NCBI RefSeq assembly: GCF_003334315.1
Contig: NZ_QOWR01000003.1
Reading direction: 5' to 3' (one strand)
Source: Escherichia coli
GTDB lineage: Bacteria > Pseudomonadota > Gammaproteobacteria > Enterobacterales > Enterobacteriaceae
DNA length: 64,000 nt
Under the pieces are notes generated by a model, which was not told the origin of the DNA, ran no database searches, and saw only the letters and a program-made list of their open reading frames with translations. This document shows, in pieces, positions 47,941 to 50,027 of this stretch. Made by a program: the position numbers and the translations under genes. Numbering within the stretch: the first letter of the stretch is position 1; every line of letters begins with the position of its first letter.

Positions 47941-47967
47941 GTTATAGTCTCGGTGCTCATTACTTAT

Positions 47968-48067
47968 TGCCGGATGCGGCGTGAACGCCTTATCCGCCCT
48001 ACGCGGTTCTGGCACATTTTGCAGGCCTGATAAGACGCGGCAAGCGTCGCATCAGGCATGATGCGCC
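47968..48067. repeat. Two REP elements (BIME)
   Basis: TGCCGGATGCGGCGTGAACGCCTTATCCGCCCTAC and GCAGGCCTGATAAGACGCGGCAAGCGTCGCATCAGGCATGATGCGCC between the convergent araJ and mak ends. Confidence 0.85.
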
Positions 48068-48082
48068 AATTGCCTACGTTTT

Positions 48083-48991
48083 TTACTCTTGTGGCCATAA
48101 CCACGCAGCGCCGCGTACGCCGCTGGAATCACCGTGCTTCGCCTTACGCACCGGCGTTTCACATTCGCCGCCGAAGACAAATTGTTTAATCAACTGCCCA
48201 ACCGTTTGATATAAACGGTCTACATTGCTCATCCCGCCCCCCAGGACAATCACATCCGGATCGAGAATATTCACGACATGTGCCAGCGATTTTGCCAGCC
48301 GCAGCTCGTAGCGACGCAATGCCAGTTCCGCTACCGGATCGCTTTCTTCAACCAGGCGGATAATTTCACTGCCTTTCAGCGCATGTCCGCTCAAACGACG
48401 ATAATCCATCGCGAATCCCGTGCCCGAAATAAAGGTTTCAATACAACCTTGTTTACCGCAATAACAAGGGACTTCCTCGCGATAACGCAGTTCGTCTTCG
48501 TCCATCCACGGTAGCGGATTGTGTCCCCACTCACCTGCCGTGCCATTGCCGCCGATATGCGCCCGCCCATTGAATGCCACGCCCGCGCCGCATCCCGTGC
48601 CGATAATCACGGCAAATACCGTCTGCGCTCCCGCTGCCGCGCCATCTACTGCTTCTGAAACCGCCAGACAGTTAGCGTCATTTGCCAGCCGCACTTCCCG
48701 CTGCAACCTCGCGCTTAAGTCTTTATCGAATGGCTGACCGTTGAGCCAGGTTGAATTGGCATTCTTCACCACACCGGTGTAAGGCGAAATTGAGCCAGGA
48801 ATGCCCATACCTACCGTTCCGCGCTGCCCCGTCGCCTGCTCCGCCATATCAACCAACGTGGCGATCGTTTCAATAGTCTGCCGGTAATCATCACGCGGCG
48901 TGGGCAGACGATGGCGGTACAACTGCTCCCCTGCATCGCCCAGTGCAATCACTTCAGTTTTGGTGCCGCCTAAATCGATACCTATACGCAC
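48083..48991 (-). CDS. mak: Fructokinase / manno(fructo)kinase Mak (ROK family)
   Basis: ROK-family sugar kinase with CYCGKQGC zinc motif; start taken as GTG (rc of 48989-48991) preceded by AAGGAGAG, giving 302 aa ([14 protein letters not shown]...); start is uncertain. Confidence 0.88.
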
Positions 48992-49115
48992 GGTACTCTC
49001 CTTATTTTTTTCAATATCAATAGCGTAGAGACGGACAACCGGATTGGCAATGCAAGGCCGCCGACAATTCGTTATCATGCCCGCTAAATTTAACGACAAG
49101 GCCGTGGAAATTATC

Positions 49116-50027
49116 ATGCTGTGGTTCAAAAATTTAATGGTTTACCGTCTTAGCCGCGAGATTTCGCTGCGTGCAGAAGAGATGGAAAAACAGCTAGCCT
49201 CGATGGCATTTACCCCATGCGGCAGCCAGGACATGGCGAAGATGGGCTGGGTTCCTCCGATGGGATCGCACAGCGATGCGTTAACGCACGTTGCCAATGG
49301 TCAAATTGTTATCTGCGCGCGCAAAGAAGAAAAAATCCTCCCGTCTCCGGTGATTAAACAGGCGCTGGAAGCGAAAATCGCCAAACTGGAAGCGGAACAG
49401 GCGCGTAAGCTGAAGAAAACCGAAAAAGATTCGCTGAAAGACGAAGTGCTGCACTCTCTGCTGCCGCGTGCTTTCAGCCGTTTTAGCCAGACAATGATGT
49501 GGATCGACACGGTTAACGGTTTGATTATGGTGGACTGCGCCAGTGCCAAAAAAGCGGAAGATACGCTGGCATTACTGCGTAAAAGCCTGGGGTCGTTACC
49601 GGTTGTACCATTGAGCATGGAAAACCCGATTGAACTGACGCTGACCGAATGGGTACGTTCCGGTAGTGCGGCACAGGGCTTCCAGCTGCTTGATGAAGCC
49701 GAGCTGAAATCGTTGCTGGAAGATGGCGGCGTGATCCGCGCGAAGAAACAAGATCTGACCAGCGAAGAGATCACCAATCACATTGAAGCCGGAAAAGTGG
49801 TGACTAAACTGGCGCTCGACTGGCAGCAGCGCATTCAGTTTGTGATGTGCGACGATGGTTCGCTCAAGCGTCTGAAGTTCTGCGACGAGCTGCGCGATCA
49901 AAACGAAGATATCGACCGTGAAGATTTCGCCCAGCGTTTTGATGCCGATTTCATCCTGATGACTGGTGAACTGGTAGCGTTAATTCAAAACCTGATTGAA
50001 GGATTAGGTGGCGAAGCACAACGTTAA
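49116..50027 (+). CDS. rdgC: Recombination-associated protein RdgC
   Basis: 303-aa product [27 protein letters not shown]... from ATG at 49116. Confidence 0.94.

Follow-up and report, generated by a model that had tools for sequence, protein, structure and literature searches.

A GTG codon behind a strong Shine-Dalgarno sequence as the translation start of mak in Escherichia coli

The mak start region and its annotation

The window analyzed here, a stretch of 64,000 nucleotides of an E. coli genome, carries on its minus strand the gene mak, which encodes a ROK-family fructokinase, and beside it the divergently transcribed rdgC (Table 1). The reading frame of mak is open well upstream of a GTG codon at 48991..48989. 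Its longest ORF (48083..49129, minus strand) runs to 348 aa from a first codon TTG at 49129..49127 and exceeds the 302-aa GTG form by exactly 46 codons, with the GTG falling at residue 47 of the 348-aa numbering. Ahead of the GTG, 50 codons containing four further start codons stay open before the frame is bounded by a TAA stop at 49144..49142 (minus strand). A run of this length is unremarkable in itself, the chance of 50 open codons being about 0.09, or (61/64)^50. The original prediction described a longest frame that begins 46 codons upstream, in the region between the two genes. This codon count is exact; the TTG that opens the frame, however, is not intergenic and falls within rdgC, 13 nt into its coding sequence on the opposite strand. 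The end coordinate then assigned to the region, 49115, corresponds to the third base of ATG-42, the start codon of a 344-aa form, and not to the end of the longest ORF. As the rdgC ATG occupies 49116..49118 on the plus strand, the true rdgC-mak spacer measures 124 nt. The GTG itself is preceded by the sequence AAGGAGAG, at a spacing of 6 nt counted from AAGGAG and of 4 nt counted from the full 8-mer.

Table 1. Features of the mak-rdgC region, in window coordinates
Feature	Position	Strand	Basis
mak CDS, ROK-family fructokinase (302 codons + TAA)	48083..48991	-	ORF list, RefSeq, Pfam, NCBIfam
mak initiation codon GTG, read as fMet	48989..48991	-	MG1655, GM4792 and CFT073 annotation; 80-species codon alignment
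Shine-Dalgarno sequence AAGGAGAG	48996..49003	-	anti-SD energy and conservation
mak TSS	49015..49016	-	PMC6131387 Supplementary Data 2
Putative mak -10, TACGCT (3/6; A2 and T6 kept)	49022..49027	-	position relative to mapped TSS
Putative mak -35, TTGCCA (5/6)	49045..49050	-	17 bp from -10; geometry
Unused in-frame ATG-29 (331-aa annotation)	49076..49078	-	no SD; upstream of mak TSS
rdgC TSS, divergent promoter	49086..49086	+	PMC6131387 Supplementary Data 2
Unused in-frame TTG-36	49097..49099	-	no SD; upstream of mak TSS
Unused in-frame ATG-42 (historic 344-aa yajF annotation)	49115..49117	-	no SD; upstream of mak TSS
rdgC CDS, divergent neighbor	49116..50027	+	RefSeq annotation, ORF list
Unused in-frame TTG-46 (348 aa)	49127..49129	-	weak SD; within rdgC CDS, opposite strand; upstream of mak TSS

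The 601 nt around the mak start are present in 5,425 of 5,426 complete E. coli genomes, where they carry the features 'mak: fructokinase' and 'rdgC'. RefSeq/PGAP annotation of K-12 GM4792 and CFT073, together with that of MG1655, gives mak a CDS of 909 bp and 302 aa that begins at window 48991. In MG1655 (NC_000913.3), the gene spans 410144..411052, and window positions are obtained as 459135 minus the MG1655 coordinate. The K-12 gene (b0394, formerly yajF) is the same gene as mak of the window and has the same CDS boundaries. The start region and the 150 nt upstream of the GTG are identical in the window, MG1655, GM4792 and CFT073; the window and MG1655 differ at three sites in rdgC and in a divergent mak-araJ spacer, and at no position of the mak start region, so the window derives from a different E. 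coli strain. The mak-araJ spacer (window about 47950-48080) contains a REP-like sequence, GCCTGATGCGACGCTT...GCCGGATGCGGCGTGAACGCCTTATCCGCCCTAC.

The GTG start of mak is already known, being the start in the current reference annotation, and longer forms of the protein are deposited alongside it. In an exact-sequence look-up, the 302-aa Mak, identical to UniProt MAK_ECOLI, is far ahead of all other forms, with at least 1000 contigs. A 331-aa form is found on 71 contigs, such as that of ATCC 8739, and a 344-aa form on 13, including an entry named 'unknown [E. coli str. K-12 substr. MG1655]'; a 348-aa form is deposited as WP_001016712.1. The MG1655 protein now stands at version NP_414928.2, indicating that its sequence has been revised once. 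The long forms are early-release annotations that share locus and frame with the 302-aa protein and reflect longest-ORF or first-ATG choices, and they differ from it by 29-46 extra residues that are non-conserved and lie outside the mapped transcript. They are over-extended annotations whose extra codons run across the promoter region between mak and rdgC. The mak start can thus be called ambiguous, as it was originally, only in the sense of this annotation history, with 331-, 344- and 348-aa entries all public, since the reference annotation had already settled on the GTG. Separately, the 90%-identity protein cluster that holds Mak also includes PlaP putrescine symporters of 452 aa, one of which serves as its representative; this looks like a database clustering or fusion artefact and not a feature of the window.

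Ribosome-binding site and mapped transcription starts

Among the candidate start codons of the frame, strong pairing with the ribosome is confined to the GTG. Pairing with the 16S 3' end (ACCUCCUUA) yields a duplex energy of -9.7 kcal/mol at the GTG, compared with -1.1 at ATG-29, -1.1 at TTG-36, +0.4 at ATG-42 and -3.1 kcal/mol at TTG-46. Pairing at least as strong as that of the GTG is seen at just 0.48% of the window's 6,027 NTG triplets. The GTG is a canonical SD-led site, namely an NTG with an anti-SD complement at 4-9 nt (here AAGGAG, at 6 nt), and the claim that it is the sole start with a good SD at 6 nt spacing holds against all four upstream candidates, none of which is better than -3.1 kcal/mol. 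The mak leader is A-rich, and its SD is mostly unpaired in the predicted fold of the leader plus 45 nt.

A mapped transcription start separates the GTG from every other candidate. Supplementary Data 2 of the SMRT-Cappable-seq study (PMC6131387), a table with columns for the genes in the operon, the TSS, the strand, the type and the RegulonDB operon, lists 'b0394 410119 forward same' for mak and 'b0393 410049 reverse same' for rdgC. These TSSs correspond to window 49016 and 49086, respectively, and lie 70 bp apart. One mak operon with a single TSS is listed, in what is one data set covering limited growth conditions. With the TSS at 410119, ~25 nt ahead of the GTG (410144), the mak leader measures ~24-25 nt. 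All four upstream candidates (410006-410057) precede this TSS and therefore fall outside the mapped transcript, leaving the GTG as the only candidate downstream of it. The exact base may be shifted by one: the listed mak position is a T between A's, and thrL is listed at 147, a C, next to an A at 148, an offset suggesting that forward values in the table may be 0-based. If so, the mak TSS is probably the A next to it, at 410120 (window 49015). This 1-nt uncertainty is without effect on the conclusion about the start codon.

Back-to-back promoters in the spacer

Measured from the mapped TSS, the geometry of the spacer points to a mak promoter with a near-consensus -35 and a weak -10 hexamer (Table 1). 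The motif TACKCT in the -10 region is conserved in genera with a long spacer. On the opposite strand, TATCAT (49073..49078, plus) lies 8 nt ahead of the rdgC TSS, and ATG-29 (ATGATA) is its complement, while ATG-42 has a CATG palindrome in common with the rdgC ATG. Both ATG codons of the upstream frame consequently have trivial origins, one as the complement of the rdgC -10 box and the other as the mirror of the rdgC ATG.

A consensus promoter scan picked up neither the mapped mak promoter nor the mapped rdgC promoter, as the weak hexamers of both fall short of its thresholds. The promoter that it proposed on the rdgC strand, at 49090..49117, was rejected, since transcription from it would begin within the rdgC CDS, in disagreement with the mapped TSS at 49086. 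The 9-mer GCATGATAA occurs twice on the minus strand, 39 bp apart, at 49111-49119 and 49072-49080. The first copy spans the rdgC ATG and ATG-42, and the second spans the rdgC -10 and ATG-29; the consensus scan took the first copy as a -10 element, which does not fit the mapped TSS.

Two intergenic blocks, at about 49042-49056 and 49060-49082, are conserved across genera far above the rest of the spacer. The block CTTGCATTGCYAATC (about 49042-49056) holds the mak -35 hexamer and is separated by 17 bp from the opposite-strand -10 of rdgC; the block GGGCATGATARCGAATTGTC (49060-49082) holds the complement of the rdgC -10 TATCAT. Together, the two blocks may represent overlapping back-to-back promoter elements or a site for a shared regulator. 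That CTTGCATTGCYAATC is a shared operator coupling the expression of mak and rdgC, and not just a pair of overlapping -35 elements, seems unlikely to us. In Citrobacter, Pluralibacter, Yokenella, Kluyvera and Pseudocitrobacter (six loci), ~35-40 bp are missing from the stretch roughly 20-60 nt ahead of the mak start, and the segment lost in these five genera is the one that carries the -10 and TSS of E. coli mak (window 49010-49040). The architecture of the mak promoter therefore varies by genus, while the SD and the start codon are fixed.

Conservation across related genera

Orthologous loci were collected from one genome per species, giving 80 loci that range from Escherichia to Serratia, Pantoea and Erwinia with 76-97% protein identity. 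The codon aligned with the mak GTG is GTG in 73 of the 80, ATG in four and TTG in three, and in none is it GTA, GTC or GTT. Its third base is invariant, whereas codons 2-8 are free at the third position and internal Val codons of mak use GTA, GTC or GTT in a large share of the species. A codon that varies among GTG, ATG and TTG and is never replaced by a synonymous codon shows the pattern of a translation start and not that of a valine residue.

The onset of coding constraint falls at the same place. Column entropy at the three codon positions amounts to 0.49/0.28/1.33 bits within the first 40 codons, as against a flat 1.61/1.47/1.52 bits over positions -30 to -1 (80 loci in both cases); three-base periodicity starts at the GTG, and none is present upstream. 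The sole conserved island within -30 to -1 is the SD, with 81-97% identity at GAGGA across the 80 species, and an SD-like 4-mer lies 3-8 nt from the start in all 80 loci.

The upstream extension behaves differently. An extension is impossible in 36 of 79 loci, where the upstream frame is closed by a stop before it reaches any ATG, GTG or TTG, and the median open stretch upstream is nine codons; in most genera, the extension is absent or closed by a stop. rdgC is the divergent upstream neighbor in 76 of the 80 related loci, at distances from its ATG to the mak GTG that include 87, 91, 94, 98, 100, 123-128 and 142-150 nt. Many of these distances do not differ by multiples of three, so that indels in the spacer ignore the mak frame. 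E. coli keeps the upstream frame open without any change, and E. albertii has it almost unaltered; this openness within Escherichia comes from the sequences being nearly identical and is thus no argument for or against an extension. The extension is not conserved even from Escherichia to Citrobacter or Salmonella, and no selected function is apparent for it.

Protein family and N-terminal boundaries

ROK-family kinases are defined by a DxGxT(K) motif and by a CxCGxxGC zinc motif with a preceding GH. In the translation of the 302-aa form, residues 6-11 are the ATP-binding DLGGTK, followed downstream by EWGH, which supplies the GH, and then by the zinc motif. Mak matches the Pfam ROK model (PF00480, E=6.1e-103) over its full length: positions 2-293 of the 294 in the model align with residues 49-347 in the 348-aa numbering, equivalent to 3-301 in the 302-aa protein. 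With a score of 610 bits, Mak also exceeds the 443-bit cut-off of the NCBIfam fructokinase equivalog NF007108, whose positions 2-302 of 303 fall on residues 47-347 of the 348-aa ORF, or 1-301 of the 302-aa form. Residues 1-43 of the 348-aa ORF, by contrast, have no homologue or profile match in the structure, Pfam and NCBIfam searches.

Among the PDB entries searched, none is a Mak structure; the closest solved structures are those of the ROK paralogue NagK (N-acetyl-D-glucosamine kinase; 7p7i, 2ap1 and 4db3; E ~1e-58). NagK differs from Mak in its substrate, and Mak scores below the NagK equivalog cut-off (268 versus 380 bits), yet the glycine-rich ATP loop is N-terminal in both proteins, and the native Met1 of NagK (MYYGFDIGGTK) aligns with the residue encoded by the mak GTG. 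The N-terminal alignment with ROK kinases, proposed originally as a check, thus pairs the Met1 of the NagK structures with V47 of the 348-aa ORF. The expected ROK N-terminus with its glycine loop agrees with both NagK and the Pfam boundary, and needs correcting at one residue: an initiator GTG is decoded as fMet, so that Mak begins MRIGIDLGG and not VRIGIDLGG. A start downstream of the GTG was considered and rejected, because DLGGTK begins at residue 6 and any later start would delete this ATP-binding loop.

Mak has been described as a constitutively expressed, promiscuous sugar kinase present at ~279 copies per cell, a value drawn from Ribo-seq work by Li et al. 2014 (PMC10519446). The N-terminomics, TetRP and retapamulin sources searched contained neither an N-terminal peptide of Mak nor an initiation-profiling entry for the gene: mak is absent from the TRAINSPOTTER N-terminomics supplements, and the portion of the TetRP supplementary additional-start lists covered here has no ECK0388-0390 entry, its sole 'MAK' match being a spurious peptide. 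The portion covered of the 2016 Cappable-seq supplements has no rows at 4100xx-4101xx. The tryptic peptide IGIDLGGTK arises from all forms of Mak and so cannot tell the starts apart.

Initiation at the GTG and alternative starts

Taken together, the reference annotation, the orthologues, the SD, the TSS and the domain boundaries bear out the original choice of the GTG at 48989-48991 as the likeliest start. We conclude, with a probability of roughly 0.97, that this GTG is the ordinary translation start of mak, the gene of a ROK-family manno(fructo)kinase. Expression would proceed from a weak sigma-70 promoter (TTGCCA, 17 bp, TACGCT) firing at window 49016/49015, which would yield a transcript with a short, A-rich and unstructured leader of about 25 nt. 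A 30S subunit would bind the strong SD AAGGAG and initiate with fMet at the GTG 6 nt downstream, and the product would be the 302-aa Mak with DLGGTK at residues 6-11. The 46-50 open codons upstream would remain untranslated, consisting of the back-to-back mak and rdgC promoters and the first rdgC codons read on the wrong strand.

The open frame of 50 codons also invites the reading that mak truly starts upstream, at ATG-42 (the 344-aa YajF), ATG-29 (331 aa) or TTG-46 (348 aa), with the GTG as an internal valine codon; annotators have deposited all three of these longer forms, the 344-aa one for MG1655 itself. We consider this extremely improbable. None of the three codons has an SD comparable to that of the GTG, all are upstream of the mapped TSS, and two of them are accounted for by rdgC, ATG-42 as the mirror of its ATG and ATG-29 as the complement of its -10 box. 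The extension that they would encode is absent or stop-closed in most genera, lacks coding periodicity and is crossed by frame-breaking indels, and its residues 1-43 are covered by no homologue or profile in the searches. The supposed valine codon, moreover, takes none of the forms GTA, GTC and GTT across the 80 species. A mixed scheme, with the GTG as the main start and a minor extended isoform made from rare longer transcripts, for example by antisense read-through across rdgC, meets the same objections. Nothing speaks for it positively; its room lies in the open frame of Escherichia and in the fact that a single TSS data set may miss rare 5' ends. The extension has no apparent selected function, being unconserved between Escherichia and Citrobacter or Salmonella, and the covered portion of the TetRP additional-start lists names no additional start in this gene range. 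Dual initiation is therefore very unlikely, and GTG-initiated Mak is presumably the only form made.

Cryptic expression and the Mak+ mutation

The mak gene is classically regarded as 'cryptic', with low expression that is rescued by promoter-up mutations. This behavior fits the anatomy of the region, in which a weak -10 and a -35 one base away from TTGACA are combined with a GTG start behind a strong SD. Sproul and colleagues, in 2001, reportedly described yajF/mak as an ORF of 344 aa and 1,032 bp and are said to have placed the Mak+ change at base 71, in codon 24, as GCC to GAC (A24D). Codon 24 of the 344-aa ORF is indeed GCC and lies inside TTGCCA, consistent with the change so described, and a C-to-A substitution at its middle base (410088, window 49047) produces the consensus TTGACA. 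This C-to-A conversion of the mak -35 from TTGCCA into TTGACA is reportedly the published Mak+ promoter-up change. If that is right, the former 'missense' would be a -35 promoter-up mutation and would provide independent genetic support for the region being promoter and not coding sequence.

For E. coli, these results confirm the reference annotation of mak as a 302-aa protein initiated at GTG, while longer database entries are still circulating. Mutations once called amino-acid changes in the long mak ORF would, if the Mak+ change is as reported, be better read as promoter changes.
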